Shown: piece after piece, positions 15,601 through 64,000 of the stretch
Layout: every line of letters begins with the position of its first letter
Position numbering within the stretch: position 1 is the first letter of the stretch
DNA from: Bilabrum cf. latius
Lineage: Eukaryota
Direction: 5' to 3'
Assembly (NCBI GenBank): GCA_965178125.1
Contig: OZ237766.1
Location: forward strand, 682,001 to 746,000
Length of the DNA: 64,000 bases
Program-made: the position numbers and the translations under genes
The notes under the pieces: generated by a model
Databases searched by the model: none
Told to the model about the DNA's origin: nothing
The model's input: only the letters and a program-made list of their open reading frames with translations

Positions 15601-17873
15601 ACAAAGGACACTCGTCACACCGAGTTTGGACCCTGGAGGCCAGCCGGGAGGCCGTGGCCCGGGAACAGCTGGACGTGCTCGTGGTCTCTGACGGCGGCTT
15701 GGACGCCCGGATCTACGCTCTCCTGCACGCCCGGATGGCCCCGGTGCAGGTGCTGCTTCTCGCGGCGCAGTCCTCGCTCAGCCTTACTTCCGGTTTGCCC
15801 CACTCCGTGGACTACGTGGCGAGCGGGGACGGGCTGGCGGGTCTCGGCTGGGACGGGGCAGTGTCTGAGCAGAGCCTGCGGGTGGGTCCCCTGGGTCTCC
15901 TAGCCGCGCCACTTTAGCCACCCTCTGCTGGGGAGCACTGGGAGGCCGTGTCAGGCGCCGGTCTGCTGGACGGAAGGAGGTACGTGCTTGTTCCCCGGCC
16001 TCTGATGGCGCTGCACCCTGCCATGGACGAGGCCATCGGGGCGATCTTGAGGGTGGCCAAAGAGGATCCAACGGAGGTTGGTCAAACTCGCGGCACAGCA
16101 CAAGGCGTGGGCAGCTCTGGCAGCAACTAGGACAAGACGCAGGCAGACCTCGTGACGAGTGGCAAGCTCCATCCACCGGTGGACTCCCAGCCTCATCAAC
16201 CCCTTCCAACCAGCAGTCCGACTCCTTCCCCTCCTCTCCCCCCGATCGAGCTGCTTGCGATGGGGGAACAAGGTCAGGGGGCCTGGCTCTCGCGGGCCAT
16301 CGCGCGGCTGCGGCACTCGCCACACGTGGGTGCGGAACTCGCAAGGAACGTTCGTTTCCTGGAGCAGGGCCCGAGGCGCCGCTTCTGGGCGCTGCTTCGG
16401 GCGGCTGACGTGGTGCTCGACTCGTTCCCTGCGGGCGGGGGCGCATCGGTGCTTGAGGCGTATCTCCTGGGGGTGCCCGTGGTGAGCTGTCCCCGGTGCG
16501 GGGGCCCCGGGGGTCAGCGGGGTCATGGGTCCCCTGGGGGTGGGTCTGGGAGCCGGAGCGTGGGTCGCGCGCTGGCAATCGCGCTGGACAGGAGACTGCA
16601 AGGAGTGTTGCTGTCAGGGAACAATGGAGGTAGTGTGACGAGTGATGGGCTGGACCTGGAGAGGGCGGCGAGTGCTGTGCAGCGGGCCGTGCAAGGTGCC
16701 AGGCCGGCAGTGCGCGAGAACACGGTGAATGCAGGGGCAGGGAAGAGGCACGAGGTGCAGGTGCAGGAGGAGGAGGAGGTGCAGGGACATGGGAAGGAGA
16801 AGCAGAAGGGAGCTTACATCAAGAAGGATAAGGGTGGCAGCGAAGGTTCCAGCAGCAAGAACGCAAGTGGTGGGGTCGATGCCCTCGATGGTGGACAGCA
16901 GGTGGCTGCACTGCCGGCAGCAGATGGGGGAAGTAGCCCAGGGCACGCAGAGGCTCGCGCTGCAGTGCAGTGCGCCCGCGCCCTCGGCCCCGGCGCCCTG
17001 CAGAGCCACCTGGTTGCGACCAACATAAGCGGTGTGACGAGTGCGGTCCGCGCTCTCCTGCGCAGGCCGGGTCCGTCCCGGTTGGCTGGCTCTGGTGCGG
17101 GCGCGCCAGGAGTCGGTGGGTCCGGGTCCGATTGGGGGAGGGCTGGGCGTATGCAGGATCCGCCCCTGCGCGTATGCTTGCGGGCGGTGCTGCGGTGCCT
17201 TGGGCCCCCCTTGCTGGTGTGGGGCGGGGACTCGCAGCTGGGCCACACGAAGAGGAAGGGGGGGGCGAGGCAATCGGAGGACAGGGGTCCGTGGGTTGGG
17301 GTGCCTTGCGCCCGGGCGGCAAGGGCGATGGTGGCTGGGTCCTCCACCTCTGGACCGGGGGCTGATGCGGGGGATATTACCGGTGCCGCTGGTGGCTTGC
17401 TAGAAAGCGGCGATGATGCGGAGGTGCAGGTGCAGGCGCAGGTGCAGGTGCAGGTGCAGGAGCAGGAGCTGGATGAGTGGGTGGAGCTGCTGGCCCGTCT
17501 GGGGAAGGGGTGGAGGGGTGCGCGGGCGGGTCTGGAGCACTTGCCACGCTTCCAAGAGGCGGTGGCGGCGCTTGAGAAGAAGAAAAGTGCCAGTGGCAGT
17601 GCCAGTGCAAATGGGGGTGGTGCCGGGTCGAAGTCAGTCCAAAGGAGCAAGAGACGAAAGAAGAGCGTCACTGTTTCCTCGGGGGAGAAAGCGTCGGGAC
17701 GAAGAAGAAATACTGGCAATTTTGCGGATGCAAAAGATGGTGCTGGTGGCAGTAAAGCCCACTATGCTGCGCACGCAGGCGAGGGCGAGAGGCAATTGGA
17801 GCCGAGCAGCACGAGGAAATCGGCGGCGGAGGATCGCGGTCCACACCGAAGGCGAAGGCGCCGCGGGAGCTAA
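12675..17873 (+). CDS. TPR + GT41 (O-GlcNAc transferase/SPINDLY-like) glycosyltransferase with signal peptide and long low-complexity inserts (about 1730 aa)
   Basis: Motifs LRVGVLS, QLDVLVVSDGGLD...ARMAPVQV...TSGLPHSVDY and ADVVLDSFPAGGGASVLEAYLLGVPVV. One frame across TAGs at 14298, 14412, 15915 and 16128; ends TAA. Confidence 0.8.
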
Positions 17874-18049
17874 TGTGTGCCATGATATTGAATTAATGTT
17901 TGCAACTGAATTAAATCTATACTGCAATGGTTATATTGGCAGCCAGTATCCCAGCATTCAATTTAAACGTGTGCGATAGGTTGCGACCGGCCCGTGGACC
18001 GTTTAAATGGCCCGTCGGCGAGCAGGTGTTTGGCCATTCAAGGGAGGCA

Positions 18050-24039: not shown

Positions 24040-27000
24040 TCACCACAGGAACCTCTGCCACAGGGTTTTCTCCTTGTCGTCGCCTTGCCCCTGCCGCCTT
24101 AGTCTACTGCCGTCTCTCGCCCGCCCGCCCACTGGCGTCCCACGACCCGCCGACGCACTCGCTGCCGCCCCGCTCCTCGCTCCCTCACTCGTCACACTGC
24201 CTCCCACCCTGGACCTAGCACGGGGACTTGCCCCCATGGGCCGCTGCACCTGCATGCGCTGCACCTGCTCCTGCATCATGGCAGCCATCATCACGTGCGA
24301 CCGGGTCACCCCTGCATATCCGATCCCGCGCCCGAGCCCGAGCCCGCCGCCGGTCGCAACCAGCGGACTTTGCCCCCCCCGGGGGCGCCCCACCATGCTG
24401 TTGGCCGAGCGTCGGCGGTGCCGTCCCACCGGAACCACCGAACTGCGCGGCGCCACGGAGGAGCTGAGCGAGCGGGCGTGTTGCGGCGGACCAGGCGTAC
24501 GCGGACCCACCGCACTCGTCACACTTCCAGCGCCACTGCCGCTGCGAGGCCTCTCCGAGGGGGTACTCACAGCGGCATCCACAGCGGCTCCCGCTGCATC
24601 GCTCGTCACACCGGGGATCCACCTCCCTTTCCCCTTGGTCCCATCTACGCCCACGACCCCCGCTGGGAGGCTGGTCACGCTGCCCGACCTGGACAGCCGG
24701 CCCCCCACCACGCTCCCAGGGCGAGAGGCGCGAGGAGACCGCACGTCCACGTCCACGCCGAGGTGATTTTCGGCTCCGGATCCCGGCCCCGTCTCTGCCT
24801 CTCGCTCCCCAGCAGCCCCCGCCCCGCTGGCCCCCCTGCTCCTCGTCGTTTTCCTCCTCCTCCTGCCGGGCGTGGTACCGCCGTGCAGTGCATCCTCGCC
24901 GTCCCTTGAAACATGCGAGTCCGCTGCGGTCCAGGCCAGGCTGCCCGCGTCCGTTTCGGTGGGTGCGTTGTTCCCCGGGCCGGTTGCAACCTCCTACCGA
25001 ATGGCACTCACCTGTCCCCGCCCTCCCCTGCCCATGTCGCCCATGCCCAGCCCATGCCCCTCCCCGGCTACAGAGCCATTCATGCCCTCACCCGCGCCAT
25101 CCATCGATCCTCGGTCATGAACGTTGCCTCTGTTCCCTGCATCGGCCCTACGCAGCAAGTTGGACCCTCGGCCGAGGCTGTCCCCTGCATGTGCCCTTCC
25201 TGCCCTGGGTACTCTGCCTCCTGCATACCCATGCACATGCAAGCCAGCATCTCCGCCCTACTCCCGCCGCTGCTTGCCATCCAACGCGCTGGGCCCCAGC
25301 ATCCTCCCAAATCCTGATCCTGATCCAGATCCAGATCCAGATCCAGATCCTGAGGTGAAACTGACGTAGCCCCCTTCGCCCTCCCGACTGCTGAACCCCA
25401 CCACGAGGCCTGTTTGACCACCCACGATACCACTCTGACCACCCTCACTCACGAGATCACCAGGTGGACGCTGCCCATCCCCTCTGCCCACCCCTCCCGG
25501 CAGCAGCCTCGCACCCCTCCCATCCCCCCGATCCCCTCCGCTCCCCGGGGTGATATCGCCATCGTCGTCATCATCGTCATCCTCGAAGCTTGAGTACCCG
25601 CCATCTCCGACCGCCTCACCCAGGTCATCCCCCTCATCCCCCATCCCCAGCCCGGCAGTCAGGAACATGACCCCCATGTCGATGCTCACACTCGCCCTCC
25701 TTGCCCTCGCCCGGGGCCTCCCACCCTCACTGCCACTGCCACTGCCACTGCCACTGTCCCTGGATGCAACGGGCCCCGCGCCTCTGCCACTGACTAGGGA
25801 CGATTGACTTTGGCCACTCTGGCTGCTCGACTCGCTGCCCGGGAGGGGCGGGCTACGGGGAGCCAGCGCCAATCCACCGGTGGTAGCCGACACTACCACG
25901 GGCTGACTGGCCCGTGAGCCATACCGATTCCCACCCAGCTCCGAACGGATGCTTCTGTGGTAGCCTGTCCGACTGCCAGCCACCGCCTCGCCATTGTGCG
26001 ACATGGTAACGGGCAGTGTCGGTGTGATGGATCTCAACCCACCAGTGCTACTAACACGACCATCCGAGTCACTTGCACTCTCCGACTGAGGCAACAGCCC
26101 ATCGAATGCATCTAAACTAGATGCCTAATACCTTGATATGCCCAAAGGTGGTGAACCACTGACCTCTGCCCCACCCTCGGACTGCACGCCATCCACCTCA
26201 CCATCCACCTCTGCCCCACCCTCGGACTGCGCGCCATCCACCTCACCATCCACCTCTGCCCCACCCTCGGACTGCGCGCCATCCACCTCACCATCCACCT
26301 CTGCCCCACCCTCGGACTGCGCGCCATCCACTTCATCCTCGGACTGCGCGCCATCCACCTCACCATCCACCTCTGCCCCACCCTCGGACTGCGCGCCATC
26401 CACCTCACCATCCACCTCTGCCCCACCCTCGGACTGCGCGCCATCCACCTCACCATCCACCTCTGCCCCACCCTCGGACTGCGCGCCATCCACTTCATCC
26501 TCGGACTGCGCGCCATCCACCTCACCATCCACCTCTGCCCCACCCTCGGACTGCGCGCCATCCACCTCACCATCCACCTCTGCCCCACCCTCGGACTGCG
26601 CGCCATCCACCTCACCATCCACCTCTGCCCCACCCTCGGACTGCGCGCCATCCACCTCACCATCCACCTCTGCCCCACCCTCGGACTGCGCGCCATCCAC
26701 CTCACCATCCACCTCTGCCCCACCCTCGGACTGCACGCCATCCACCTCACCATCCACCTCTGCCCCACCCTCGGACTGCGCGCCATCCACCTCACCATCC
26801 ACCTCTGCCCCACCCTCGGACTGCGCGCCATCCACCTCACCATCCACCTCTGCCCCACCCTCGGACTGCGCGCCATCCACTTCATCCTCGGACTGCGCGC
26901 CATCCACCTCACCATCCACCTCTGCCCCACCCTCGGACTGCGCGCCATCCACCTCACCATCCACCTCTGCCCCACCCTCGGACTGCGCGCCATCCACCTC

Positions 27001-28608
27001 ACCATCCACCTCTGCCCCACCCTCGGACTGCGCGCCATCCACCTCACCATCCACCTCTGCCCCACCCTCGGACTGCGCGCCATCCACCTCACCATCCACC
27101 TCTGCCCCACCCTCGGACTGCGCGCCATCCACCTCACCATCCACCTCTGCCCCACCCTCGGACTGCGCGCCATCCACCTCACCATCCACCTCTGCCACAC
27201 CCTCGGACTGCGCGCCATCCACTTCATCCTCGGACTGCGCGCCATCCACCTCACCATCCACCTCTGCCCCACCCTCGGACTGCGCGCCATCCACCTCATC
27301 ATCCACCTCTGCCCCACCCTCGGACTGCGCGCCATCCACCTCACCATCCACCTCTGCCCCACCCTCGGACTGCGCGCCATCCACCTCACCATCCACCTCT
27401 GCCCCACCCTCGGACTGCGCGCCATCCACCTCACCATCCACCTCTGCCCCACCCTCGGACTGCGCGCCATCCACCTCACCATCCACCTCTGCCCCACCCT
27501 CGGACTGCGCGCCATCCACCTCACCATCCACCTCTGCCCCACCCTCGGACTGCGCGCCATCCACCTCACCATCCACCTCTGCCCCACCCTCGGACTGCGC
27601 GCGATCTCCCACTGGCTCTTCACTTGTTGCTGCCTCCTTTACCATTAGTTGTTCAACTGCTGAACCCGTTCTATCTTGTGTGGGACAATCACTTACTTGA
27701 TCCCGTATTGGTGGTTCAGCTGATACTTGTTTTGCATCCAGTCCGGTATTGCTACTTGTTAAACCTCCGAGAGCACTCTCCAACAGTTGATGCAACTCGT
27801 TTGCACGTGTGCCTGGTCCAGGCGGTAAAGATGCGTGATGGGGTAAGGCTGCCTCTTTAATGCGTAGCTGTCCATTTGACAATATTTGGGAACTTTGTGC
27901 TAATGGACCGCTGGCACCTTGCTCATGTGATCCAGATGCCCTTGGCTATCTGGCCCGAGGTGGGCCTCCAGGTCTGACGACTACCTGCTTGTCCCCGCAA
28001 GGTGGTGCTGTCCCATTGTGCACGCACATAATTTCACTCTTTGGCTATGGAGGCCTCATACCTGACCAAGCTGGAGTTTTATGTGCCTCGTGCTCTTCCT
28101 CGTTCTGTGTGAACCGTTGCGACTCGCCACCCAATGCAGCGAGTGTCTCTCCTGTCTCTGACTAGTTAGCCTACCCTGGATATTGAATGCAAGAATTTCG
28201 GCCGTCATTTACTGCGGCACTATCGGCAAATTGAGAGCTGCTTTGGCCGATGCCGGTATCTCTTGCTGCTGCAGTGGCCGGGCACCCAGGCCTGAGAGTA
28301 CTGTGACCGGCAGGTTGTTCAGACTACGAGGTTACCTGACCAGAGCCCGTGGAATCCAACTAACCGCTCCTCTTGGTATCGGCATGAAATGATACTGCCT
28401 CTCTGTGAGGCAATGACGGCGCCTGCCATTCATCAGCATCGGCTGTAGTGAGAATGCGTGCCTAATCGCGACTGGCCGTCGATTTGTTCAAATAAAGCTC
28501 TTTGGTGCATACAGCATCCTTACGGGAAGCTACCGCAACTGGCAAGGTGTCGCATGCATACTGAGTCGTCCGGTTCCCACGACGCACGACACTGCCGCTG
28601 TTTCCCAT
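24040..28608 (-). CDS. 1522-aa disordered protein with N-myristoylation-like start (MGNSGS) and central acidic 15-aa tandem repeat
   Basis: Single frame with no TAA/TGA but 10 TAGs (28462, 28360, 28324, 28171, 28162, 28045, 27946, 26125, 25258, 24994); ends TGA after KTLWQRFLW. Confidence 0.75.
26162..27602 (-). repeat. Coding minisatellite: about 30 x 45-bp unit (GAQSEGGAEVDGEVD) with four interspersed 27-bp units (GAQSEDEVD)
   Basis: Unit CCATCCACCTCACCATCCACCTCTGCCCCACCCTCGGACTGCGCG is near-identical throughout. Confidence 0.95.
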
Positions 28609-28871
28609 GAAAATCACCCAAACACTATAACTTCAACAGTAGAACTACCACAATTTGACGCCCTGCTGCCGAGTATCGTTCAAGTGGTTCGCGCGGGCCT
28701 ATTCGTGTATCGAAGCCAAACAGAAGTACAGCGGAGCAAAGCTCTACGATTCGCCCTGTGCAGGGTGCCGCGCATCGTGTGAGGTTCCGCAACGCAGATC
28801 GGATGAACCCACGGACAACCAGCAGTGTACTTGCCCCCGCGCCAGCAACTAATCGTTTGCAGTAGAGCATA

Positions 28872-29882
28872 TCACCGCCGGCTCCTGCCCCTTCTCTTCT
28901 TACTTTTACCCTGCTTTGGGCCGGAGCCAGCCCCTTCTTTACCCCCATCCCCATCCCCATCCCCACCTGGACCACCCCCCCCATCCCCATCCCCCCCTGG
29001 ACCACCCCCCCCATCACCCCTCAGCATCCCCCCGCGACCCCGGCTCAGCGATCGGCCGTGCCCACCCCCCCTCTCCCTGGCAGCATGTGTCCTCCTCCCT
29101 CTGCCATCGTCTCCACGAGCACTAGCACTAGCACCCGCCCCGTCCTACTCCTGCTACTCGACCTCTCCAGTATCGACTCCGAGTCCCGTGGCTTCCCCCA
29201 AGACCCCAACACTGCCATCACCACCACCACCACCACCACCACCGTCGTTGCCAGCTGCACCATCATCATGCTTCACCTACGGCTCCTACTTTCCAGGGCC
29301 GCTTCCGAATAGCCCACCAAAGAAGCCTCCAGCGGACTACGACTGGGCCCTCGCACCGGCTTCTTCCTTGGCCCTCGCATCGGCTTCCTCTTTGGCTCTC
29401 GCATCGGCTTCCTCTTTGGCTCTCGCATCGGCTTCCTCTTTGGCTCTCGCATCGGCTTCTTCCTTGGCTCTCGCATCGGCTTCCTCTTTGGCTCTCGCAT
29501 CGGCTTCCTCTTTGGCTCTCGCATCGGCTTCTTCCTTGGCTCTCGCATCGGCTTCCTCTTTGGCTCTCGCATCGGCTTCCTCTTTGGCTCTCGCATCGGC
29601 TTCCTCTTTGGCTCTCGCATCGGCTTCCTCTTTGGCTCTCGCATCGGCTTCCTCTTTGGCTCTCGCATCGGCTTCCTCTTTGGCTCTCGCATCGGCTTCC
29701 TCCTTGGCTCTCGCATCGGCTTCCTCTTTGGCTCTCGCATCGGCTTCCTCTTTGGCTCTCGCATCGGCTTCCTCTTTGGCTCTCGCATCGGCTTCTTCTT
29801 TGGCTCTCGCATCGGCAGCATGTTCACTGTGCAAGGCTTGCTCGGGCGACACTACTGCGTGTTTCCCCTGAAAAAATTGCAT
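28872..29882 (-). CDS. Charged helical repeat protein or exon (ARAKEEAD x19) with Gly-rich tail; probably has an upstream exon
   Basis: The ORF continues through TAG 29337 and further TAGs to TGA at 28872. TTTTTTCAG near 29868-29876 looks like a splice acceptor. Confidence 0.55.
29355..29815 (-). repeat. 24-bp coding tandem repeat, 19 copies (ARAKEEAD)
   Basis: Unit GGCTCTCGCATCGGCTTCCTCTTT with synonymous-site variants. Confidence 0.95.
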
Positions 29883-40906: not shown

Positions 40907-40975
<69 letters not shown>

Positions 40976-49738: not shown

Positions 49739-52700
49739 TCACTGCCCTTGCCCCCGCCCTTGCACGCGCACCCCAATTGCCCGGGCCCGCTGCAGCACCG
49801 CCTCATGAGCCGCCCACAGGGATTCGACCCCGGGATCTCGAGGGACACCAACATTCGATGCACCCTACCACAGCCTATTCGCGGGTCCAAATCCCTGTGC
49901 TTTCGGTGCTGCAGTGTACTGCACCCCTGGAGCCACATCCGGAACAAACGCGGGCTCATGGTTTCGGTAGGCTGGTCGCTGGCCGGCTGCAAGGTACCCC
50001 GCACCACCATGCGGTGCACCCAACCCAGCTTGGCCCCCAAGACCTTGCCCTGCGCTCCCAAAGTCCATGGGCACCCGCCCCCACGCACCGGGGAGCTAAC
50101 CTCCGGCCCCTCCACGGCCCCATTCTCCTGCCCGACCCCATTCCCCTGCCCGACCCCAAGACGGGGTCGGTTGCCCAGGAACGCCCTCACCATCTGTGGG
50201 ACGCAATCCAACGTGGACCACGTGTGTACCGCCAAGCGCACCGTCGAACCCAGACGGCGCATCGGCAACCGCTGCCTCCTTCGCATGGACAGACGGCGCA
50301 TCGGCAGCCGCTGCCTCCTTCGCATGGACAGCCTCGATGCCGCTGGGACGCCGCGAGTGAGACATATACCCAGCGGCCGGGCCTCGGCCTGGGGCTGGGG
50401 CACTATCAGGCGAGGCATAGCCGGTGCTTGCATGATTGCCAGCTCCCGGCCGTGCTCCAGGCCCACCCCCCATCCCCAGGCCCATGCCAGTCACCCCCAG
50501 CCCCAGATAGGGCTGGTGCGACGGGCTCCACTCGGCCCGCTGGCCGAATCCAGGCTGTGCTCGAGCCGCTGCCGCTCTGGCCATGGTCAAACTGGCATCT
50601 GCCACCAGCCTCTGCAACCACTGTCCCTCTGCGTCTCCCTGCCTGTCCTACTCCCCGCCCTTCCCCTCGTCCTTCTCCCCGCCCTTCCCCTCGTCCTGGG
50701 TCTGTGACTGGGTCTGTGACTGGGACTGTGACTGGGACTGTTCCTGGCCACCACTCACAGGTGCACCTTGTGCATCCGATGGTGATGCTTCTTTATCATT
50801 AGGCCCAATCCCCCGTGCATGGTCCGGGGCTAAAGCCCCCCCCAGCGTCTCGAATACAGTGGGCTGCCCCGGTGGAAGCGCATGAGCAGGGGCCTGTGGA
50901 GCCAGCATGCCGGCCCCCTGCACCGCCACCCCCGGGGCACTCCCCCTAGCCATCGCCTCCCTCGCCCACTGCACCGACAGCTCCCGACGGCGAGCGGCGT
51001 CGCCCCCCGGGTCAGCCACCCCCTCCGGCTGTTCCCCGAGAGCAGCGGCAGCGGCCTGCTGCCACCCCTGCGCCATCCTGAAGGTCGCGCCCTCTGCAGT
51101 CGCAGGGTTGCCCGCCCCCGGCACGCCCAGCGAGGCACCCGCCGCGGCCAGCGCCCCCCTCACCTCCGCCTCGCGAGCAGCCCCCGCGCCCCATGCGTCA
51201 GAGGCAAGTCCCAAGGAGGCGCCCAGAAGGCGGTCTGCCTGCCGCCCCGATTCCTCCGCCGCGGCATCGTGGGCCCCCCCCTGCATCCCCAGCTGTGAGG
51301 GGGAGGGCCCGTCCAGCAGCGCGTCAGCAGACCCAGACCCAGACCCAGACCCAGACCCAGACCCAGACCCAGACCCAGACCCGGACCCGGACCCGGACAC
51401 AGGCTGGCTTCCCTGGTCCAGTCCCTCGCCCTCGCCCTCGCCGTGTTCGCCCGCCTGGATCCTCTCTTGTTCCCCGGGCCCACTCGACCCGACGAGTGGC
51501 TTGAACACGGTGGGATGAGCAGCCGGGGCGGGATACGTCGAGGGCCCCACCCCAGCTGCGAGCAAGGCAGCGGCGAGAGGGGGGCCTGCCTACGCGCCCG
51601 CCCCCTTCTGCTGACCTGACAGCGGTGGGACGGACACGGCAGGTGCACCCGGCTGCTCGGGCGCTGGCGGCGGCCTGGGCTGCCTCACGGCCGGCAGCGC
51701 CCGAGCCCACTCCCTGACCTCTGCTGCCTTGTCCTGCACCCCTGCACGGGCCCCCTCTGCAGCCAGCAGCCCAGCTGCCACCTGCCTGCGGTAGCCCTTG
51801 TTCTCCAGCAAGGGGTAGGCCCTCGGCAGCAGCCGCGCCGCTTTGGCCACGTCCTCCGCGCTATCCGACTGGGCCAGACCCAGGACCTCCACCACACCGG
51901 GGCTTTCTCCCAGCGGATCAGCGCCGCTCCCACCACCACCACCATCCCCATCCCCATCCCCATCCCCGCCTGCCGCCGCCCCGCCCCCACCGAGCCGCCC
52001 CGTCCCCCGCAGCCTCTCCAACGCCACTTTCCCCCTCCTGCGCCAACCCTCCGTGGCCCGAGCAGCCGCCGCCAGCTCGTCCTCGAGCTCCCCACCCGCC
52101 TCCTCCTTGGCATCCAGTGCGGCCTGCTCCTGCGCAGATGGCACGCACAGCCCCGGGGGCTCCCCGCTGCCGCTCCCATGCGCCGCCCATGCCTCCTGCA
52201 GCGTGGGCGGGTCGTCTCCCTCCTGCACCCCCGGGGGGATGCTCGCGCCGCCCTTGCCATCGAGACCACCCGCTCCACCGCGGCCATGTTCCTCCTCCTC
52301 TTCCTCCCCCTCCTCCTCTTCCTCCTCCTCCACCGTGGTGTCGACTGCCACGGCCAGAGCAGGCACCCCCGAGGGCAGCAGTCGCACCCACAGGGGCTGC
52401 CGCTGGCCCCTCGCCCTGGCCAGTGCCATGGATGCCCCCTCCTCGGGGGTCCCCGCGCTGGAGGGGTCCTTCCAGGGGTCCTTCAGGGGCAGGCCGCGCC
52501 GACGGGCAGCCTTGCGCTGGGTCCACAGAGAGGCCAGGGCGGGGGCGGGCAGCATGGCAACCGGCCACCCCCCCGGGGCAGCGCCGGCGAGACAGGCCAT
52601 GGCCCGGGGAGGAGGGGGCCTGCGCGCGGGAGGGCTGTCCCCTTTCTCTTCCTCTTCCTCTTGCGCTTGCGCTTGCACCTCGGATGCCGCTTTAGCTTCG

Positions 52701-54974
52701 GCTTCCGTTGATCCCTAGGCTGTCTCTTCCGTCTACTGCTGCGGTCCCCCGTCACCCGCTTGTTCTCCGTCCTCGGCCGGGTCACGCTCACCCTCCAGTG
52801 TGCATGCCTCCCGCACCAGGTCGGTGAGGGCAGTGGCCACGCTGCACCGACCCACCCCCTCCTCCACTCCCAGGGCACCACCCCACGCCTCGGGTCCATT
52901 GGGATATGGAGCATCCTCTCCATCCCCTTCGCCCTGTTGGTTATGCCCTTTGGCTGCACCACCACCACCACCACCTCTCCCGCTCCCGCTGCCTCCAGCC
53001 CCTTTGCCCAGGTCAGCACCCCTAGCCTCTAGACCCTGGCTATTGTCGCGCCCCGCCCGGCCCCCACTGTCCACCTCCACGCCTTGCCGCAATGCTCCTT
53101 CCTCTCCTGTGAACGCGCCGGTGCCAAAGGCCCCAGCAACCTCCTCACCCCCTTGCCACCTAGCACCAGCACTACCGCCAACCCGCCGCTGCAGCCCGGC
53201 AGGCACCAAGTCGCTCCTCCGGACCCTGCCACGCGCCAGTGCCGCCCGCTGCCCCGCTCCCTACACCTGCGCCACCAGCCGCCCCGCCATCTGGGCCCTC
53301 TGCTGCTGCTCCCTCAGAGCTCGGATGGCCCGCGCCTCGGCCGCGGAGTGCTCCTGCCGGGCCAGCTGCAGCCGCCGCTGGAAGGACAGCATACCCGTGT
53401 CCAGCGCGTCACCGATGCGCCGAGCCGCCTCCCGGACACCCTCGCCAGCCATTCTTCTCCCCACCCCCGGCACCCCGCCCATCCCGCGCCCCTCCACCTC
53501 CCGCAGCACCTCCCGGGCCCCCGCAGGCACCTGCAGGCCCCGCATCAGCAGCCACTTCCTCCCCAGCCCGTGCCCCGGCCCGTCGTTTACGTCCTCATCA
53601 GCCACCGCCCCTGAATCCTCCTGCTCTTCGTCGTCCTCGTACTCATCCTCGAAATAGTCCTCGTACTCATCCTCATCCTCGTCCCAGTCGCCCGTGCCGC
53701 CTCCGTACGTGTACTTCTGTCCTGCGGCCGCCCCCGAGCGGGATATCCTCCCACCGATGCCCCCACCATCGCGGTCCACCCGTCTCCCGAGCCAGTCTCG
53801 GCTCGAGTGCGGGCCCGGGGGCAGAGGCGGGTGCACGCGCCTCGCCGACAGCCTGTGTCCGGCCCTTGCCCTGGCAGCCGCGACCGTCTGCTCGTGAGGA
53901 GGAGGCAGCGGGCGGGCCGCGCGCGCCTCTGCCGACAGTTCCCCTTGTTCTCCGGGTGCACTGCCTTGCAGCGCGCCCACCGCCCTCTCCAGCACGGGGT
54001 CCATCCCGCGGCCCCTCCTGCTCCTCTCCGCCGCCCCGGCAGCCGCCCGCCCCACCGCGGCCAGGGCGCCATCCACAGAGGCAGCCACGCGAACACCGAT
54101 CGACCGCCGGGGGGAGGGGGGTCCGAACCCGGCTTCCATCCACCCGCCCCGGCCCCGGCCCCCGCCCCCTTCCAGCCCCAGCCCCAGCTCTGAGTCCTCG
54201 CCCTGCTGGAACAGCCCTTCACCCACGGCACTGGGCAGCGAGCCCGCCGCCTCCATGGCCCCCGACAGATTCCCCTCCTCATCTTCTTCGTCTCCATGCC
54301 CCGTGCCTTGTTCCCCCAGGCTGGCCCCGATGGCCGAGGCCCGCCGCCGGGCGGCCTGCAGCAGGGCAGCCACGGAGGCGCTGGCCACGCTGTGGGAGAG
54401 AGAGGCCAGGCCGGGGGCGTGCACGTCTGCGGGGCCAAGGTCTGTGTCTTTTACACCGGAAGGCGGGCGCAAGCGCGCCTGAAGCCGCCCGCGCGCCCCT
54501 GTGGGCTTGTTCGGTGGTACAGCAGGCCCCGAGGTCGATGGCTGAGCAGGCTGGCTATCTCGGCTGCGATTCAATAGACTGACATACGTGGGTAGGTCTC
54601 AGATGCGAAAAGGAAACGAATGATTTGACCGGTATCGGGTTGTTCATACGCTGTCTGCGTTTGTCTCACAGCGAAGGCTCGCTCAAGTCATCGCTCGGTC
54701 GCAGTCCAGACGCACGGACTGCCCCTGCACGGCTTCGTGGGGGGCGGCTAGATGTGTTTTGCGTTAATTTACTTGCAATGGATTCCATGCCAGGGTCACC
54801 CGAGACAGGCTGTCCAAAATCTCGAGAAGAAGGCGGATCGATCGGCGCTACCGGGGACGGATGCAGCCACCATGGTTCTTTATCCTCTGTCTTTTCCGTC
54901 TATGATTGTCTAGATTCTCGACTTTGGGCAGCCCCTTCCCTAAAACGCTTGATCAGCTCCTTAGCGGTCGCCAT
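49739..54974 (-). CDS. Large low-complexity protein with PROSER3-like N-terminal motif; intron 54579-54669
   Basis: Starts MATAKELIKRFREGAAQSRESRQS*...PWWL, followed by a phase-compatible GTGAGA...TCAG intron. Six ORF-track fragments lie in one frame joined by TAGs; ends TGA at 49739-49741. The family resemblance is from recall only. Confidence 0.6.
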
Positions 54975-55100
54975 TTCCGTGTGAATAGCTTTGAATTGCC
55001 GCAACGGCTGGAAGTTCGCTACGATGTCACGAACGTTCTGTGTGGCTGCGTAAACATCAATACCATTGTCCGGTGCGGTAGCAAGAGACGTCTGATATAC

Positions 55101-56393
55101 ATGAAGCTTGTTCTGACAAAAACTTTGTGGGGGTGCGATGAGGTAGCACATCCACAAAAATGGGCCGGCTTGCTCGAGCGTGTGGTTGCACAAGGCTTCA
55201 ACGCGATCGAAATCGCGGCTGCTGGTCTTCCCGGTGACGGAGCTCTGGACAAGAAATGGGCGGAAGCCGTGAAAGCGAGCGGTCTCAAGCAAGTTGTGCA
55301 GCTGCACACTTGCGGCTACGTGGCTCGCCCAGGTGCGGCGGCCATGAGCCACGGCATCTTCGCGCAGGGCATCGTTGGGTCGGAGGACCCCAAGGACCAC
55401 CTCCGCTCGTTTGAGGAACTGACCAAGCGAGCCATGACGATGGGAGCGGATCGAATTAACTCTCACTCGGGTCGGGACTCGTGGGATACGCCTACGGCGG
55501 TCGCATTCCTGCGAGATGCGATCGCAATCTCGACACGACTGGGCGTGGCCGGCATCACGACCCACGAGACGCACCGCCAGCGCATCATGTGGAATCCCTT
55601 TTAGGCCATGGCTGTCATGCGGCAGATCCCTGAGCTGCGAGTCACCGCCGACCTGTCCCACTGGTGCTGCGTGATGGAGCGCGTGCCCGACACCGAATCG
55701 GACAGAGCGTGGGGCACGGGTGAGAGCAAGGGCGAGAGCAAAGATTCGGAGCCAAAAGGATGGGCCGCCATGCTGGAGCTGCTCGCAGACCGGGTGGACC
55801 TGATCCACGCGCGAGTGGGCGGGGCCGAGACCCCCCAGGTGGGGCACCCCGCCTCCCCCGAGGTGAGCTACGAGGTGCAGGAGCACGAGGGGTGGTGGGC
55901 CCGCATCCTGCGAGGGATGAAGGCGAGGGGGCTGGAGGAGGCATGGGTGGAGCCGGAGTTCGGAGCACCCGGGTATCAGCGCGTCACCCCCTTCACATGC
56001 ACGCCGGAGGAGGACCTCTGGGAGGTGAACGGATACATGGCGGGCCGGGTGGCTGTGCTGTACAGCAAGCTGCACCTCAATGAAGATACCGAAGGCAGCG
56101 ATGCAGGCAGCTTGAAGGCGGGAAGTGCGAAACAAGCCACTGGCAAGGGGGTAGGCGGCATCCCGGCGCCTCTGTTGAAGCTGTACAAGGATGGAGAGGC
56201 AAGGGGGGAGGTGGCTCGCAGGAGGCTAGCGACAGGGGGTGCAGAGGTAGGGAAGCCCCAGGATAACTTGAATTGGAAGGGCGGCGTGGTTTTGCTCAGC
56301 GTTGGGCTGGCGATAGGTTTCTTCGCTGGAATCGCGCTTAAGCCGACATTGGAGCGAATGATTCGAAGCAGTGGCCGCAAATCTACCAGTTAA
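55101..56393 (+). CDS. Xylose-isomerase-like TIM-barrel sugar phosphate isomerase/epimerase with C-terminal TM anchor
   Basis: Motifs KTLWG, INSHSGRD, HETHRQRIMWNPF*, LRVTADLSHWCCVMER, IHARVG and PEFGAPGY. TAG at 55602; ends TAA. Confidence 0.85.
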
Positions 56394-56756
56394 TGACAGC
56401 TGGGCCTTACGGTGTCCATATTTCGATTGCAGTCTTTTGGCCAGCGTGTACTATGTTCCGCAAGTGATGGTGGAGAGCGCGGCGCCACTGTGTCGTGCAG
56501 GCGTTGAGAGCACGGAATCATACTTGTGCATCCGCTTCGTGCTGTCTGCCTGCGTAAGTACCCGGTCAAATGATCTCGACTTGCAAGCTTCATGCATCCT
56601 CTCCCAAGCTTGAGATAATTTGCTAGACTCCATCGCCTGAATTGCCCGTTTCGGTTTCGAGAAAAGAATACAGTTCCACTGCACCGATTCACCTGTTGGC
56701 GCAGCATGCAAAAAGAAAAAGTTGTGTTCGATTCTGCCGTAAGTGGTTCCAATCCT

Positions 56757-59496
56757 ATGCACGAAAAAAAGCCAACGCAGCAGTCTGCAGGGGGCTAGAA
56801 AGCCATGTGCTGCGGGCTGGGCCTAGGAGGTGCGATTGGTCTCAGCGTGGTGGCAGGTCTTATTTTTGGAGGGGCAATCGTTGGAATAGCTATGAACTCT
56901 CTTATGGATGATGGCGATGAAGGTGAAGCAGCGAGGCCCTCACTCTCAAGCACTTCTGCGTCCACGGAGTTTGCTGCCAGCACTGCTGACAGCCTTGCTG
57001 CAAACGCATGCCCGAGCGAAGGACAGGCAGCGGCTCTAACAGGCCCAACTGAGTATTTTGCAACCACATACATCGACATTGCGGGGCCTGCGCTTTCCTG
57101 CGATGAAGCGGGGGCGATCGGTGACGCGACGGCGTCTACGCTCGGCGTAGCTGCTAATGCTACCTTCGTTGGCGTCCTGTCGATTGGAACCAGGCGAATG
57201 TCAACGGTTACGACCAGCGCCAGCAAGCGCCCTGGTCATCTGCGGCAGTTGTAGTCCGTGTCGCGCATCGAGCAGACGATCCTCGCCCGCGACATTTCGC
57301 AGCTCCAGTCGATCGAAGCAAGCATGGTGCAGGCCTACAGCGACGGCTCCCTCGAAGCTAGCATCCTGGCAGCCGCGCCCGCCGAGTCCACGGGCGTGCT
57401 TCTGCCCCCAATTGAGTCCCTCGTGCGGGTCGGAAGGCTTGCCAACCCATCGACATCGCCGACTGCATCAGCCTCGCCGTCGCCGTCCACCACCGGCACG
57501 CCAGGCCCTTCATCGTCTGCTTCCCCGTCCACCACGGCCACACCCTCGACCACTGCAAGCGCTTCCCCCTCCACAACAGCTTCGGCAGACCCGACAACGA
57601 CGGCCACAGCCACGGCGTCAACCACTGCAAGCGCTTCCCCCTCCACAACAACGTCGGTCTCACCAACGCCGTCTGCAACCAGCACCGCCACCGCCAGCGC
57701 CAGCCCCTCGCCTGTCGCCACTGTCGTTGACCTGAAGCTGGTCGACATCGTGGATGACACGGCCATCTCCACGCTGAACGCGGAAGTGGTGCTGCGCAAC
57801 GAGCGGACGGGACAGGTCTCTGCAGCGGGTTGGATCCTCTCTGGGAGCGATACCCTGCGTGTGACTATGCCGGGCACCGACCTGCACGCCATCGAGGCCA
57901 GGGGAGAGGGCTTCGTGCAGGTGCTGCCCGCCTACTTTGACAGGGCGCAGGCCGGGCTCTACTCGGATGCAGTGTCGTGGTTCCCAGTCTACGTGGCCAA
58001 GCTGAGCGATTAGGACGAGGAGACCACCCGGGTGTTTGCCACGAATGGGCGCAGGCCCGGCGACCCTGAGCTGGCTGCACTCATCGGCAACACCTCGAAT
58101 TCGCTGGTGCACGCATCAGCAGGGACGAAGCGCGGCAACGGCGACAGCCCCGAGTGGTGCAAGGCGCACCATGATACATCCGATTGCTCCTTTGGGAGCA
58201 CGTCCATGGTCTCGTTGAGGGATACAAGCGGCTTGAACGGGTGGGGATCCGAGATGGTCACCATCACGGACGGGAATTCTTCCTGCAGTTTGGGGCAGGT
58301 GGACGGCACGTTGGAGGCGATGACGTGCAGGGTGCGAATCATGGTGAGCATTTCGTCCAGTTTGCCTTGGTTGTGCTTCAGCTCTGATTGCTCACCTCAT
58401 ACCGCCTGCTTGCGCTCTCCCCCCCAAGATGTCTCACCTGTGCCACCCAATAATTGGCCTGGCATTCTGCTCACCGCAGCTGGTTGAGTACAGTCCTGGC
58501 GGCGTGTATAACGTGGACGATCCCACCGATGATTCCGAAGAGTATTACATACATGATCCCTCGGAAGTGGACGAGACCTTCGTCCCGCGTGTAGTGCTAG
58601 GGCCCAACGGATACAACGCCACGATGCGGCCGTCCCTTTTCCACTACATCTCTAGCCCCGCCGTGGCAGTCGTGGGTGCCAACAGCAGCGCCGGCGTAAT
58701 CCGCATCTCGGCACGGGAGGCTGTCACCCAAGAGACGGTCGATCACGTAGCTAACACGGGAGCGTGGTGCAGCGAGTGGTTCGTGGGCACGTACGACCTT
58801 GCAAGCAAGCAAATGTCCGAGTACCGCGACAATGGCGTCTCCTGGGTGCTTGACGAGTTCTTCATGACCAATTGGTGGGAGGGGTACGTCTGGGATGCGG
58901 AGGAAGGGACGGTCACGGCTCGTAATGCCAGCTTTGTGCCTTCCAACGTGTCGACCTACCCGTTCCTGTGCTCCTTGCCCCCATACGTCCTGGGTGACAC
59001 CTTTGCGAACAACCTGTACGACGACGACTAGCTCTACGAGACGTGGAAGGGATCCTACCTGGCCCAGTACATCGCCATGTTCCTCGAGCCTGACCTCTTC
59101 CGCACAGCAGACGATGACACCAGCATGGTGGACGATCCGGACTACCAGGTGCACACGTACAACCTGCGCCGGGTGGACCGCTCCCGCAAGGTGGGATACC
59201 GCCGGCTGCTGGAGGCCGAGGGGCGGGCAGAGGTGGACGCCGACTTGAGGCTGAGGGTGGAGCGGCTGCTGGAGGCCGAGGGGCGGGCAGAGGTGGGCGC
59301 CGATCTGAGGCTAAGGGTGGAGCGGCTGCTGGCCAACCAGGACCCAGAGAGCGGGGAGCCGCTTGCAGAGGTGCGGCACGTGCCTGACTACATCCCCGAG
59401 GAGCTGGCAGAGGACCTGAAGCGCAAGAGCTTGTTCCAGGGGAGGGACCACAGCAGGCCATGGCTGCTGTCGGATGGGCGTCCGCTGCTCTACTGA
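56757..59496 (+). CDS. Membrane-anchored surface protein with Ser/Thr/Pro-rich stalk; intron about 58344-58480
   Basis: N-terminal TM segment and a mucin-like region at 57440-57720. TAGs at 56796, 57252, 58011 and 59029; a GTGAGC...CCGCAG intron restores the frame. A 60-bp internal duplication lies at 59203-59332; ends TGA. Confidence 0.65.
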
Positions 59497-59693
59497 CTGT
59501 ACCCGTACTGAGCAAAGTAGACCAGGCCAGGCCAGGCCAGAAACAGAAGCAGAAGCAGTGGCACGGGGTGTCTTGGACGGCCTGGAATGCCACAGCTGTC
59601 GGCCAAATATACGCTTAAGAGCGTCTGTCGCAATGATGATGGTTGATTACATATCCGGATCGTTGCAATTAACCTAGGCTCAGTTCTATGTCC

Positions 59694-61115
59694 TCATGTA
59701 CTACCACCACTGGCTGCCTCAGCTGCCTCGCTGTCCCCTCCCTTACCCTCCGCTTGCGCGCACCTCCGCACATGCCGGATCACCTCCGCGTGCACCTCTC
59801 TTGGACCAGCTGAGGCCACCACTCCCAGCGAGGTGGGCAGCCGCCTCCCGTGCGAGAAATCAAGCTCCCTCCCCTCCCCGTCCGTCACGCAGCCGCCGGC
59901 GGCCTGCAGCACGGCAGCCCCGGGCGCGTGGTCCCACACCTTCTCCCTGTATCCCGCCTGAGGGAAGCGCAGGTACAGCTGGGCCTGCCCCCGGGCCAGC
60001 AGCCCGTACTTGGCCATCGAGTCGATCCGGACGGGGGCCTGCTCCTCAGCCGGTGGGAGGCCAAGTGAGGTTGCGACCGCCTCGCTGAGCCCGTGTGACG
60101 AGTGCCCCGACTCGAAGGACTCGACCAGTCGGAATGCGGAGAGAGGGCACGGGCTCGGGCTCGGGCTGGAGCTGGAGGGGAGGGGGGCGCAGGACTGGCC
60201 GCCGGGGAGCATCGACACCAGGTCATCCGAGTGCGTGCTGTCACCCTTCAAGTTGATTGTGCCCGCCGCAGCCAAGCCGTCCTCCTATTCCTTTTCCTCT
60301 TCGTCACCCCTGCCGGCCGTGGAGGCGCGCTTCCTCTCGGAGGCAGGCGCCACTGGCACTGGCACTGGCACCGGGAGCAGGGAGCTGCCCACCTGGCTGG
60401 CCTCGAGAGTTGAGGCGATAGGGAACTGTGCGCACTGAGGGGTGCCACTAGCAGTGGCCAAGCTGCCTACAAACAGCGTCCCGTTGCCCTCGCCACCGCC
60501 GGCTGTGTGCTCGCCGTGGTCGAACCCGAGGTTCGGACACGCTATCACCCCTGCGATTGCCCGAGCCCCGTCCACAAACCCCAGGCCAATAGAGTACTGA
60601 TGATCTTTGCCGCGAAGGAATCCTTTCGTTCCATCAATAGGATCTAAGCAGAAATATCTTCCCGCGTACTCTTCCGAAGCGGTGGGATCAAATGTGCCAG
60701 CATCGAGAGCCTCACACACAGACACTTTGTCGACGGCCTTCGCATCAAGATATGTGCACCCCGCAGCCCCTTGCTTGATTGCATCGATCACAGCAGAGCA
60801 AACCGATCCATTCTCCCGAACCGCAGAAGAATCCTCCTCGCCAATGACAGGCAGAGCCGCATGCCCGCCTTCGAGCAACTCGGGATCCCGCTTGAGCAAC
60901 ATAACTATAAGAGCCTGCACAGCAAGGTCTCCAATCGTAACGGGTGACAGATCATCTTTCGACAGACTAAACCCTGCACCAGCAGAGCCTGCGGTCGCAG
61001 GTTGAAGCCTACGAGTGATGGTTGCAGCTCGCAGAACGGCTCTAGAAGCCGCTCGAATGTAGGCCATGTGTAAGTGATCTGCACTTGAATCTGATTCGTC
61101 GGCAGCTGCAGCCAT
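59694..61115 (-). CDS. 3'(2'),5'-bisphosphate nucleotidase (HAL2/MET22/SAL1 family)
   Basis: Motifs KDDLSPVTIGD, GEEDS, LDPIDGTKGFLRG, GVIACPNL, ESFESGHSSH, RIDSMAKY and YREKVWDHAPG. TAG at 60285; ends TGA. The start could be slightly upstream. Confidence 0.92.
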
Positions 61116-61392
61116 GTGGGCTCGCAGTATGCCCCGATCGGGTAGATCTAGAGTTGCACACATCTCACTCTTCTTCTTCTTGGAAGTCGCACGCACGGTA
61201 GGTGCAGCCGAGTGCGGTGTACCCTACAAGCAACTCATATAGACTGTGCTCTTACACTCACAGACGGAAGCATGTTTGCAGAAAGTGCGCCAGGGTATCG
61301 CAGGCAGGCCTGCGAATCAAGCATTGATGGCGACGTGCTGTATTCGACAGCCCCTCAGGCTGTTTTGCGTTGTTTTGTCCACCAGCGGCGGC

Positions 61393-64000
61393 TTACCCGG
61401 TCCCCTGCTCCGCCAGTCTCGCTCGGATGTGCTGCACCGTGTCAGCGAACTCCTCGCTCGTCACACCCGATACCTTGGCCGCGTCCTTCGCTGGGATGAC
61501 GGTCCCCCCACTCCCTGCGACCCCTCCCTCCCCCTGGGCCTGCTCCCCACCTCGTGACCCCGCCCCCATCCGGTGCACCCCTGCAACCCCCCCGCCTCGT
61601 GACCCCGCCCCCATCCGGTGCACCCCTGCAACCCCCCCGCCGCGTGACCCCGCCCCCATCCGGTGCACCCCTGCAACCCCCCTGACATCGTCTGATGACA
61701 CGCTCATATCCCCCCGAGCCCAGTCGCTCCCCAGGCTCCTGTTTCCCTCCCCCGCCATGGGGTCACCCCCGCCCCCCCTGCTCCCCCCCGCCAGCCCCAT
61801 GAGCCCCCTCATCTCAAGCAGGTCGCTCACGCTATACAGGCTCTGGTTTCCCTCCCCCGCCATGGGGTCATTCGGGTTTGTGCCGGGCACGTGGTGCATG
61901 GCGCTGCTGTCGCCGAGCCCCGCCCGCAGTCGCTCCATGTCCGCCACGCTAGCAGGTCGGTGTGCATGTGCAGGCTGCGAGTCGGACTCCCCTGACCCTT
62001 GCTCGAGAACAGCGCTGCTGATCCGGCCCCGGCCACTGCCGCCGTGCGGATCCTCCGAGACGGATGACGACGAGGAGGAGGTGATGTTGCCAGGCGCCAT
62101 ATCACTGCCGTGCAGTGCACCAATTCCCAACCCCACAGCTCCACGGGCCCCTGGTGTCCCCGGGACGCTCACGCTGCCTGCAGATCTAGCCCCCAGCCCC
62201 CCGTGCACGGGGCCCGCCCCCGCTTGTGCCCCGACCTCAGCCCCTGCCCCCCGCTGCTGCCCCTGCCCGTACATGCTGCCCAGCGACTGCGCCCCGATGG
62301 ACAGCGCGCCCAGCCCCATGAAACCCCCTGCTGGACTACTCCCCCCCGGACTCTGGCTATGCTCCTGCACGTGCCCCTAGCCTTGATGCAGGCGCAGGGT
62401 GTGCTGGGGTGCCCCCGGGGGTGTATCGCTGGGCATGGTCATCATCTGCTGCCTGTGCTCGTCCTTGATGTCCCGCTGATGCTGCATCATTTCAATGCTG
62501 TTCTGCATCTGCTGTAGTGCGAGCATGCGCTGCATGTGCAGTGCACGGTGGTGGTGCAGCTGCTGCTCCCTGTAGGCCTCCGCAGGGCCGGTCATCCCAT
62601 GCACGCCTGCATACCCCTAACCCCAGCCGGGGGACGATGCGGGGTGCCCCGGGGGGTACGAGGGGGCGCCAAAGGCCCCTTGGGCGGCCGCCGACAGACT
62701 CTTCAGCCCCTCATGCCTCGAGCTGTGCGAGCTGGCGGTGCTGCGGTTGGACGAGACATGCTGGCTTGCCGGGCCAGTGTTTGGCAGGACGCCGCCCATG
62801 CGATCCGGTCGGCGACCTGAATCATGGTACGACTGCCCGGGGCCCCGCCCGTGGAGTCCTGGAGCAGCAGGTGGCAGGCTGGGCGGCACCGGATGCAGAC
62901 TGAACTCGGAGCCCTGTGAGTGTGACGAGTGTGCCGCCGGAGCGACGGGTGACTCGGGCCTGGAGCCGACTGCCACCCCATATCCCATGCCATGGGCCCC
63001 CTTGCCCTTGCCCTTGCCCTTGCCCTTGCCCTTGCCCTTGCCTTTGCCTTTGCCCGCTCTCCCCCTGCTTGACCCAGGCCCTGCCCTCGGGGCCCTCCCC
63101 TGCAGCGTGGCATCCGCGGCCCAGTCAGACACAACAGTGGGTCCGCCCAGGCCCAAATACTCCCGAAGGTGCGGGGGGACTGCAGGGCCCTGCTGGCCTG
63201 CCTCTGCTCCGCTTGGGCTGGAGCCATCCCCCCCCCTGCCTGCACCCTCGGCAGGGGGGGGCAGCACGGGGATGGCAGAGCACACGAACATCTGCGCCTG
63301 CCCGTCGCTTGCCCGCAGCAGGGACATGGACACCAGCGAGGACACGGTCCCTCGCCTGAACTTGCACAGCTTGCGGAAGCAGTGCACCATCGGAGTGCCG
63401 CACCCGTCCTGCCCCACGGTGCCAGCCAGCGGCCTGGACTGCGCCGCCACCATCATGGCAGCCCTGGCGTCTTCGCACGACTCGCAACTGTGGCGGGAGG
63501 CGTCCTCGGCCGATCCCTTTCCTCTTCCATTGCCTTTCCCCTTCCCCTTTCCTGTACCTCTACTTCGATCACTGCCCGCACTGATGCTTCCCTGTCCTGC
63601 CTCCGCTCCGTCACCACCGCCATCACCACCGCCATCACCACCGCCATCGCCACCGCCACCCCCATTTACCCCCCTGCCTTCCTGCTTGCCCTGGTGAATG
63701 AGGGAGGACACCACGTCGAACATGCTGTCCAGCTCGCTCTGGGGGGTCAGCGAGAACACGCTAGAGGCGCGGAGCTGGTCTGCCGTGTACCCCGTGAGCG
63801 CCCTGAACAGGGCGTTCGTGCGGCGGAAGGAGCCGTCCGGGGCTGCCACCGCCATGGCCACGGGCGCCAGTTCGAACACGCAGGGCAGCGGCAGGGGGGC
63901 GCCGGGCAGCGGCAGCAGAGCGCCGGGGGCAGGCACGGGGGTGGGTCGCACGGGGACTGGGGCGGTGTAAGAAGGGACTCCCCCTTGGGAAGGCAAGCCG
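61393..64000 (-). CDS. PAS-domain protein, probable bHLH-PAS/bZIP-PAS transcription factor; 5' end is outside the window
   Basis: Contains VFELAPVAMAVAAPDGSFRRTNALFRALTGYTADQLRASSVFSLT...FDVVSSLI and a later VSMSLLR...MFVCS. TAGs at 62617 and 62377; ends TAA. Confidence 0.75.
61553..61682 (-). repeat. 45-bp coding repeat x3 (GVAGVHRMGAGSRGG)
   Basis: Units start at about 61553, 61598 and 61643. Confidence 0.85.

Follow-up and report, generated by a model that had tools for sequence, protein, structure and literature searches.

The genes in the 64,000 nucleotides (nt) of DNA analysed here (contig OZ237766.1 of Bilabrum cf. latius, positions 682,001 to 746,000 of the forward strand; this whole stretch is called the window below, and positions are counted from its first letter) contain UAG as a sense codon, whereas UAA is not a normal sense codon in them and behaves unlike UAG. 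The feature is real and not a product of chance: UAG stands in frame in conserved genes and in mature mRNA, UAA and UGA are excluded from the coding frames, and gene ends at UGA are backed by homology and RNA. The explanation that we regard as probable is that UAG is translated, most likely as glutamine, that UAA is not decoded, and that termination takes place chiefly at UGA and probably, to a minor extent, at UAA, a code which we take to be that of NCBI table 15.

In-frame UAG and the exclusion of UAA from coding frames

Codons were counted in 17 long open reading frames (ORFs), each trimmed to its first ATG and together comprising 15,819 codons. In these ORFs TAG occurs 73, 75 and 99 times in frames 0, 1 and 2 respectively, the corresponding counts being 0, 210 and 269 for TGA and 0, 32 and 37 for TAA. 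When TAG is read as sense the longest ORFs grow from 1167 amino acids (aa) to 1782, 1619, 1530, 1306, 1296 and 1254 aa, while freeing TAA or TGA instead gives no such lengthening. Total ORF length was dropped as a test of the code, since freeing TGA, the commonest of the three triplets, raises the total most. In-frame TAGs are present in 16 of the 17 long ORFs, which are free of TAA, TGA and frameshifts, at densities from 0 in 1,158 codons up to 14 in 1,250. The coding score over the 40 codons 3' of a TAG has a mean of 0.19, as against 0.25 for ORF interiors, and over the 40 codons beyond the 17 TGA ends it lies between -0.29 and 0.10. Several of the TAGs fall inside segments that align with homologues, namely in the PheRS, ALG1, EF-hand and TIM-barrel genes. 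The PheRS ORF alone has six in-frame TAGs, five of them within the 439-residue part that was searched, and because this is a housekeeping enzyme the decoding of UAG must be efficient. UAG as a sense codon, already proposed in a first-pass annotation of the window, is thus well supported, being borne out by the frame statistics, by the conserved genes and by RNA-like contigs in which UAG stays in frame after splicing. The seven TAGs that the same annotation had noticed in a lower-GC stretch were likewise recovered, at 27948-28464 on the minus strand, in the 5' part of the ORF 24040-28632.

The transcript evidence comes from contigs of three public sequencing runs (X5-X7), which cover 44001-64000 and leave out 106-192 nt at each of five joints. 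The DNA passed over has GT..AG ends (CT..AC where the gene lies on the minus strand), begins with GTGAG or GTAAG and finishes with CGCAG, and a DNA-like run (X1) reads straight through all five joints. In addition, one contig has a loose end of 23 A at 59672, which represents a poly(A) end. Because of the spliced joints, their GT..AG ends and the poly(A) end, the window can be taken to be nuclear DNA from a eukaryote whose introns are of the ordinary spliceosomal type. Twelve in-frame TAGs lie within exons covered by these contigs (48484, 48640, 48876, 49056, 49434, 55602, 56796, 57252, 58011, 59029, 60287 and neighbours). For one gene the joints 56553/56705 and 58342/58479 (GT..AG) are present in X5-X7 and the spliced frame was checked; for the EF-hand gene RNA-like contigs span 48797-49642. 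In the listed contig records there are no differing letters at the TAG-bearing exons, and across the 20 kb contigs and DNA differ at four positions only, which all fall within 46582-46699. Since the spliced contigs retain the TAGs unchanged, the dominant RNA has lost none of them to splicing or editing, minor RNA variants being beyond what contigs can rule out. The 3' end of the WDR5 gene and the region ~61310-61396 lie outside the RNA cover and were excluded as evidence.

The absence of TAA from the same frames is more than a reflection of its rarity in GC-rich DNA. The number of TAAs expected if TAA were synonymous with TAG was obtained by scaling the 73 TAGs by the ratios of A-ending to G-ending codons in 13 other codon pairs. 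It ranges from 6.7 (GTA/GTG) to 55 (GCA/GCG) against 0 observed, with a probability of finding none of at most 0.0012; the glutamine pair itself (CAA/CAG, 128/550) predicts 17, with a probability of 4e-8. The first-pass statement that exons hold no in-frame TAA thus stands for all 15,819 codons of the 17 ORFs, and no in-frame TAA was found in the RNA-supported spliced coding sequences either. As a control the ORFs of the same 17 genes were bounded by TGA only (16,572 codons, summed by hand). All 12 in-frame TAAs of these extended ORFs lie at most 113 codons from the 5' edge or at most 45 from the 3' edge, in edges that are short, AT-richer and partly overlap the neighbouring gene, and none of the 12 is interior.

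The residue encoded by UAG

The identity of the inserted residue was assessed at eight TAG columns in which at least 70% of the homologues have a residue, using a simple column-frequency likelihood. Comparison with homologues suggests that UAG is most likely glutamine, which is the best reading though not a secure one. In the likelihood over the eight columns glutamine comes first of the 20 residues, serine third, and leucine falls outside the top six. At the ALG1 column all 63 of the aligned homologues have glutamine and none has leucine, serine, glutamate or aspartate. At the TIM-barrel TAG glutamine is present in the six nearest homologues, and it is also the commonest residue overall (13 of the 49 with a residue there, none of them glutamate). 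Column 23 of the EF-hand protein has glutamine in 19/49 and neither glutamate nor aspartate.

A code decoupled in the same way, in which UAG stands for some other residue such as glutamate or aspartate, is an unlikely alternative that nonetheless deserves serious weight, and a number of observations speak for it and against glutamine. Column 209 of the EF-hand protein is occupied by glutamate in 47/50 homologues and by glutamine in 1/50, and column 77 of PheRS by aspartate in 56/61 with no glutamine. The lead of glutamine in the likelihood is only 0.6 log10 units (~4-fold) over aspartate and, depending on the pseudocount, 0.9-1.6 log10 units (7- to 40-fold) over glutamate. Moreover, 6 of the 73 TAGs lie directly 3' of a Glu codon, and the second TAG of WDR5 (48484-48486) faces a leucine of the human protein, in an N-terminal tail of low conservation that was given no weight. 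Set against these are the ALG1 column, with neither glutamate nor aspartate among its 63 glutamines, and the TIM-barrel and EF-hand 23 columns described above. Even at the glutamate column the lone glutamine belongs to a near homologue (P0242, 71% identical), and at the aspartate column the nearest homologue carries threonine. The remaining sites are of less use: column 83 of the EF-hand protein is mixed (V 12, Q 11, E 10, D 8), two other TAG columns of PheRS are variable, the sulfatase TAG lies in a gapped region of the alignment and that of SAL1 inside an insert. Across the four ankyrin-like paralogues the TAG faces H, H and H at one place and S at another, which is uninformative.

Gene ends and the role of UAA as a terminator

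Tabulation of 20 gene ends gave 17 TGA, 3 TAA and 0 TAG. This agrees with the first-pass account of the ends, with the proviso that an ORF table built with TAG as sense cannot, by construction, show a TAG end. The three TAA ends named there, 17871-17873 (+), 56391-56393 (+) and 61393-61395 (-), are confirmed as the first in-frame stops other than TAG. The PheRS and the EF-hand protein terminate at TGA where their homologues end. All 20 ORF ends are separated from the nearest in-frame TAG by 42 codons or more.

Termination at UAA itself is no more than weakly shown by the three cases, each of which has its own alternative. At the end of the TIM-barrel gene TAA is followed immediately by TGA. 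This tandem lies within 55078-56485, a region over which an RNA-like contig (X5 record 11) shows no splicing, and the nearest TIM-barrel homologues also end a few residues past the C-terminal hydrophobic helix, yet neither the contig nor these C-termini separate TAA from TGA at 56391. The TAA at 17871 stands in a context (AGC TAA TGT) that is not donor-like, and downstream of it the GC content is 0.41 and the coding score -0.25. The third, at 61393, is embedded in a donor-like sequence and may open an in-frame candidate intron of 87 nt (61310-61396), after which 17 codons lead to a TGA at 61258-61260; its splice-site likeness was judged by eye against the five RNA-supported introns. A second stop is found within four codons at 2/17 of the TGA ends and within eight codons at 6/17. 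If TAA were a sense codon occurring at most 3 times in 15,819, finding it twice among the final four codons of 20 genes would have a probability of ~1e-4 by our own arithmetic, as compared with ~0.04 for the same two tandem cases if TAA stops. The likelihood ratio therefore favours termination at TAA by a few hundred-fold, on a sample of 2-3. A paper on tandem stops (PMC6879139) suggests that selection may favour such back-ups in ciliates whose codons are reassigned. Thus, of the first-pass claim that UAA remains a stop, the ends themselves and the exclusion of UAA from the frames hold up, while termination at UAA rests on three ends, all with alternatives.

Several points weigh against the code as we read it. 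None of the three TAA ends tells by its position whether TAA or TGA stops translation, because of the nearby TGAs and the possible donor. The entire analysis concerns 64 kb, a small sample, and the ORFs in the codon counts are partly delimited by TAA itself. Gene models are ORF-based except at the five RNA-supported introns, so that some apparent ends could be splice donors, and the donor-like context G TGA G is found at 4/17 of the TGA ends. None of the sequencing runs listed for the window is recorded as RNA. The RNA status of X5-X7 is a program's guess ('RNA?'), X5 also being flagged as 'probably DNA', and their RNA nature is backed only by the spliced joints and the one poly(A) end.

An ordinary code of the table 6 type, with UAA and UAG both glutamine and UGA the only stop, would treat the TAA 'ends' as C-terminal glutamines or intronic sequence and the rarity of TAA as a consequence of GC-richness. 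It accords with the GC3 (G+C at third codon positions) of 0.7-0.8 in the window genes, with TAA being the rarest of the TAG, TAA and TGA triplets, and with the TGA stops that follow each TAA end 1, 4 or 45 codons further on. Given 0 TAA beside 73 TAG where 7-55 would be expected, even the most lenient of the codon-pair ratios being hard to reconcile with none, it is nevertheless very unlikely. It is also hard to see so rare a TAA falling twice in the last four codons of 20 genes, and the GC content and coding score drop straight after the TAA at 17871. A context-dependent or leaky code of the Condylostoma or Blastocrithidia type, with UAG as both terminator and sense codon, has a comparably slight chance of being correct. 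A window of this size is too small to exclude some TAG-ended genes, and the density of TAG differs markedly from gene to gene; on the other side, TAG keeps its distance of 42 codons from all ORF ends, and the PheRS and EF-hand proteins continue through their TAGs into conserved domains before stopping at TGA. Lastly, an artefact through pseudogenes, RNA editing at TAGs or unrecognised introns, to which some decayed-looking ankyrin-like paralogues might point (TAG facing S in a near-identical copy and H in three others), is already largely refuted by the intact frames of 16/17 long ORFs, by RNA-like contigs that keep the TAGs with no other letter in the listed records, and by conserved genes that are full-length relative to their homologues.

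The system that we favour would accordingly comprise a GC-rich eukaryotic nuclear genome with GT-AG introns and polyadenylated transcripts, whose cytoplasmic translation would decode UAG as sense, most likely as glutamine, with UGA as the predicted main terminator (17/20 ends) and UAA probably a minor one. Such a code would call for a tRNA with the anticodon CUA and for an eRF1 that no longer recognises UAG. The discrimination of UAA and UGA from UAG by eRF1, as proposed in the first-pass annotation, would be a reasonable mechanism. ARAGORN found no tRNA genes in the window, and none of the 25 window ORFs compared with Pfam matched a release-factor family.

Gene content and lineage

The coordinates of the genes, codons, joints and repeats discussed are collected in Table 1.

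Table 1. Positions of genes, in-frame codons, gene ends, splice joints and repeats in the window
Feature	Position	Strand	Remarks
Arylsulfatase	2347-4167	minus	homology, Pfam
ALG1-type beta-1,4-mannosyltransferase	4249-6225	plus	homology
ALG1 TAG	4762..4764	plus	motif LV-x-NPP
Ankyrin-like ORF	7502-8665	minus	
Ankyrin-like ORF	10166-10897	plus	
Mitochondrial-type PheRS	11081-13153	minus	PDB 3cmq, E=2e-103; TGA stop 11081-11083 at homologous C-terminus
PheRS TAG, column 77	12170..12172	minus	
ORF of 1782 codons	12525-17873	plus	4 in-frame TAGs; ends at TAA 17871-17873
TAA gene end	17871-17873	plus	next in-frame TGA four codons on, 17883-17885
ORF of 1530 codons	24040-28632	minus	no in-frame TAA or TGA
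Ankyrin-like ORF	30414-31301	minus	
GH95-like gene	36058-39561	minus	1,158 codons from first ATG; TGA stop
Ankyrin-like ORF	43959-45452	minus	
WDR5	47092-48684	minus	Pfam/homology; RNA-like joints
WDR5 joints	47865-48047, 48213-48404	minus	RNA-like contigs
WDR5 exon 1, in-frame TAGs	48640-48642, 48484-48486	minus	RNA-like contigs
EF-hand protein	48810-49580	plus	three in-frame TAGs (48876, 49056, 49434); TGA stop 49578-49580
Xylose-isomerase-like TIM-barrel gene	ORF 54906-56393	plus	sub-threshold Pfam match and homologues
TIM-barrel TAG	55602..55604	plus	motif WNPF-x-A; RNA-like cover
TAA gene end, tandem with TGA	56391-56393, TGA 56394-56396	plus	end of TIM-barrel gene
Gene with RNA-supported exons	56705-58342 and 58479-59496	plus	TGA stop 59494-59496; poly(A) loose end 59672
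TAGs in those exons	56796, 57252, 58011, 59029	plus	RNA-supported
SAL1/HAL2 phosphatase	59694-61316	minus	homology
TAA gene end	61393-61395	minus	within donor-like GG/GTAAGC; acceptor-like TTCGCAG/G 87 nt downstream, ending at 61310
ORF ending in TAA	61393-63999	minus	may continue past candidate intron 61310-61396 to TGA 61258-61260
GGTGTGACGAGTG sites, examples	5962-5974, 13554-13566, 14514-14526, 33028-33040, 60092-60104		

Certain of the first-pass gene labels need qualification. Neither 'GT41', given to the gene ending at 17871, nor 'PAS', given to the one ending at 61393, has Pfam support at E<=0.001; for the former there is a sub-threshold Glycos_transf_1 match, and for the latter no family. 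The 'TIM barrel' label corresponds to a sub-threshold AP_endonuc_2 match (27.3 bits against a cut-off of 31.1) and to 443 homologues at E<=1e-10. The ALG1 protein had no match in PDB. When the sulfatase ORF is aligned with human arylsulfatase B, the match begins at residue 101 of the human protein, so that the N-terminal part with the catalytic-site region must be encoded by exons further upstream or be absent. Among the 1,158 codons of the GH95-like gene there is not one TAG, where ~5 would be expected at the average rate of the window; its CAA/CAG ratio is 3/44 and its GC3 0.81, and strong codon bias or a different history could account for this.

The best named matches of three genes are to stramenopiles (Cafeteria, Blastocystis, oomycetes, brown algae and Hondaea) with ~45-55% identity, and the nearest relatives are environmental sequences. 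In a quick single-gene tree of ALG1 the window adjoins Cafeteria with weak support (SH-aLRT 82). These protein comparisons suggest a stramenopile-like lineage, which is taken as a lead only.

Repeats and other sequence features

The 13-mer GGTGTGACGAGTG (allowing one mismatch) is present at 34 sites on both strands, as against 0.06 expected from shuffled sequences. Most copies lie inside long ORFs, where they read G-V-T-S or, in the other orientation, H-S-S-H. The copy in SAL1 encodes the conserved HSSH motif also present in yeast HAL2, so that a plain insertion would not account for it. A second word, GCATCGCACGG(T/C), which reads A-S-H-G, has six copies and a near-copy at 14121. A metagenome scan with the doubled core of GGTGTGACGAGTG recovered 120 loci, and the motif-rich ones proved to carry (GTGACGA)n heptamer microsatellites and were set aside. 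In GC-rich loci such as L004, L043, L044, L097 and L110 these repeats lie between genes. ORFs of the (GTGACGA)n loci often end at TAG, fitting the standard code, and blastn found no match between these loci and the window.

The four ankyrin-like ORFs share a block RDARL(L/M)FQAAAEGRPMELAKR, and the copies at 10166 and 30414 are almost identical across ~100 residues; they may represent a dispersed gene family or repeat. Within the ORF 24040-28632, the region ~26100-27650 of the minus strand consists of dozens of tandem 15-residue units GAQSEGGAEVDGEVD, all six frames of which are open. The putative ORF 28659-29924 (+), in the lower-GC stretch between genes, has ~20 tandem GSRIGFLF units and a match to a glycine zipper (Pfam PF13488, E=2e-13).

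Two convergent genes nearly touch, with the plus-strand poly(A) site at 59672 and the end of the contig of SAL1 (minus) at 59679, 15 nt beyond its TGA. The SAL1 contig begins at 61146. Each of the three RNA-like runs has a contig whose match to the minus strand stops at 61168, after which the genome goes on with GTGAGA, and beyond this point the contigs carry at least 211-255 further letters that have no counterpart in the window. The 30-letter loose end at 61168 in X5-X7 matched nothing in the window with up to three mismatches. This end could reflect splicing over a long distance, a difference between strains or a chimeric assembly.

Relationship to known codes and implications

The earliest demonstrations of a code in which UAG alone is reassigned and UAA still stops came from a rhizarian (Leu) and from Iotanema spirale (Gln), according to the cited passages of PMC5304391. 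The first-pass list of such lineages was incomplete, since the relevant part of PMC11687900 records later cases in Scotinosphaera (Ser), in Protocruzia tuzeti (Gln) and in several phyllopharyngean ciliates (Leu, and Gln twice). The code of the window would function like the glutamine variant. A close parallel is Iotanema spirale (Panek et al. 2017), in which, as stated in the portion of PMC5304391 cited, UAG is glutamine, UAA is not reassigned, and the two codons are decoupled in a nuclear genome; in the window, too, UAG is sense, with glutamine as its probable meaning. Iotanema differs in that UAA is its primary terminator, with UGA also a stop, whereas here UGA ends 17/20 genes and UAA is at most a minor terminator. 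It is moreover a metamonad and so of an unrelated lineage, the best matches of the window being in stramenopiles, and the window is GC-rich (63% G+C). The UAG-only ciliates described in those parts of PMC11687900 similarly have UAG alone reassigned and UAA as a stop, with glutamine among the outcomes. By its best matches and the ALG1 tree the window is of non-ciliate origin, and it has long GC-rich genes with GT-AG introns of 106-192 nt. The rhizarian exLh (UAG=Leu) and Scotinosphaera (UAG=Ser) share the decoupling of UAG from UAA, judging by the cited sections of PMC5304391 and PMC11687900, but leucine and serine fit poorly here, each being found in 0/63 homologues at the ALG1 column. The table 6 codes, in which UAA and UAG both encode glutamine, resemble the present one in the probable meaning of UAG and in UGA as the main stop. 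According to the cited part of PMC11687900, such codes occur in many ciliates, ulvophytes, hexamitin diplomonads, Streblomastix and Amoeboaphelidium. The window departs from them in its lack of in-frame UAA.

Thus, the code is most likely of a rare but already described kind, found in what looks like a new lineage. Whether it represents an independent and unreported UAG-only nuclear reassignment, in a stramenopile-like, bicosoecid-related and strongly GC-rich protist, is a proposition to which we give somewhat less than an even chance. Full-text searches of the literature (main texts) turned up no published change of the nuclear code for stramenopiles or bicosoecids, and to our knowledge none is known from these groups. 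As a bolder variant, UAG may stand for Glu or Asp rather than Gln; the cited passages of the literature mention no lineage with such a UAG and with UAA kept as a stop.

If the proposition is true, no earlier change of the nuclear code would be known from that supergroup, as far as the literature searched shows, and this one would have taken place without the AT pressure usually invoked for the loss of stop codons, with UGA rather than UAA as the main terminator. At a practical level, annotation under the standard code would cut most long genes at TAG (16/17 of the long ORFs here), and annotation with TAG as sense is needed. With donors of the GTAAG and GTGAG type, moreover, ORF ends deduced from DNA alone can be splice sites. 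More generally, each independent split between UAG and UAA tests how eRF1 distinguishes the two codons and how stop codons are captured, and a GC-rich genome that stops mainly at UGA would make a useful contrast to the known cases.

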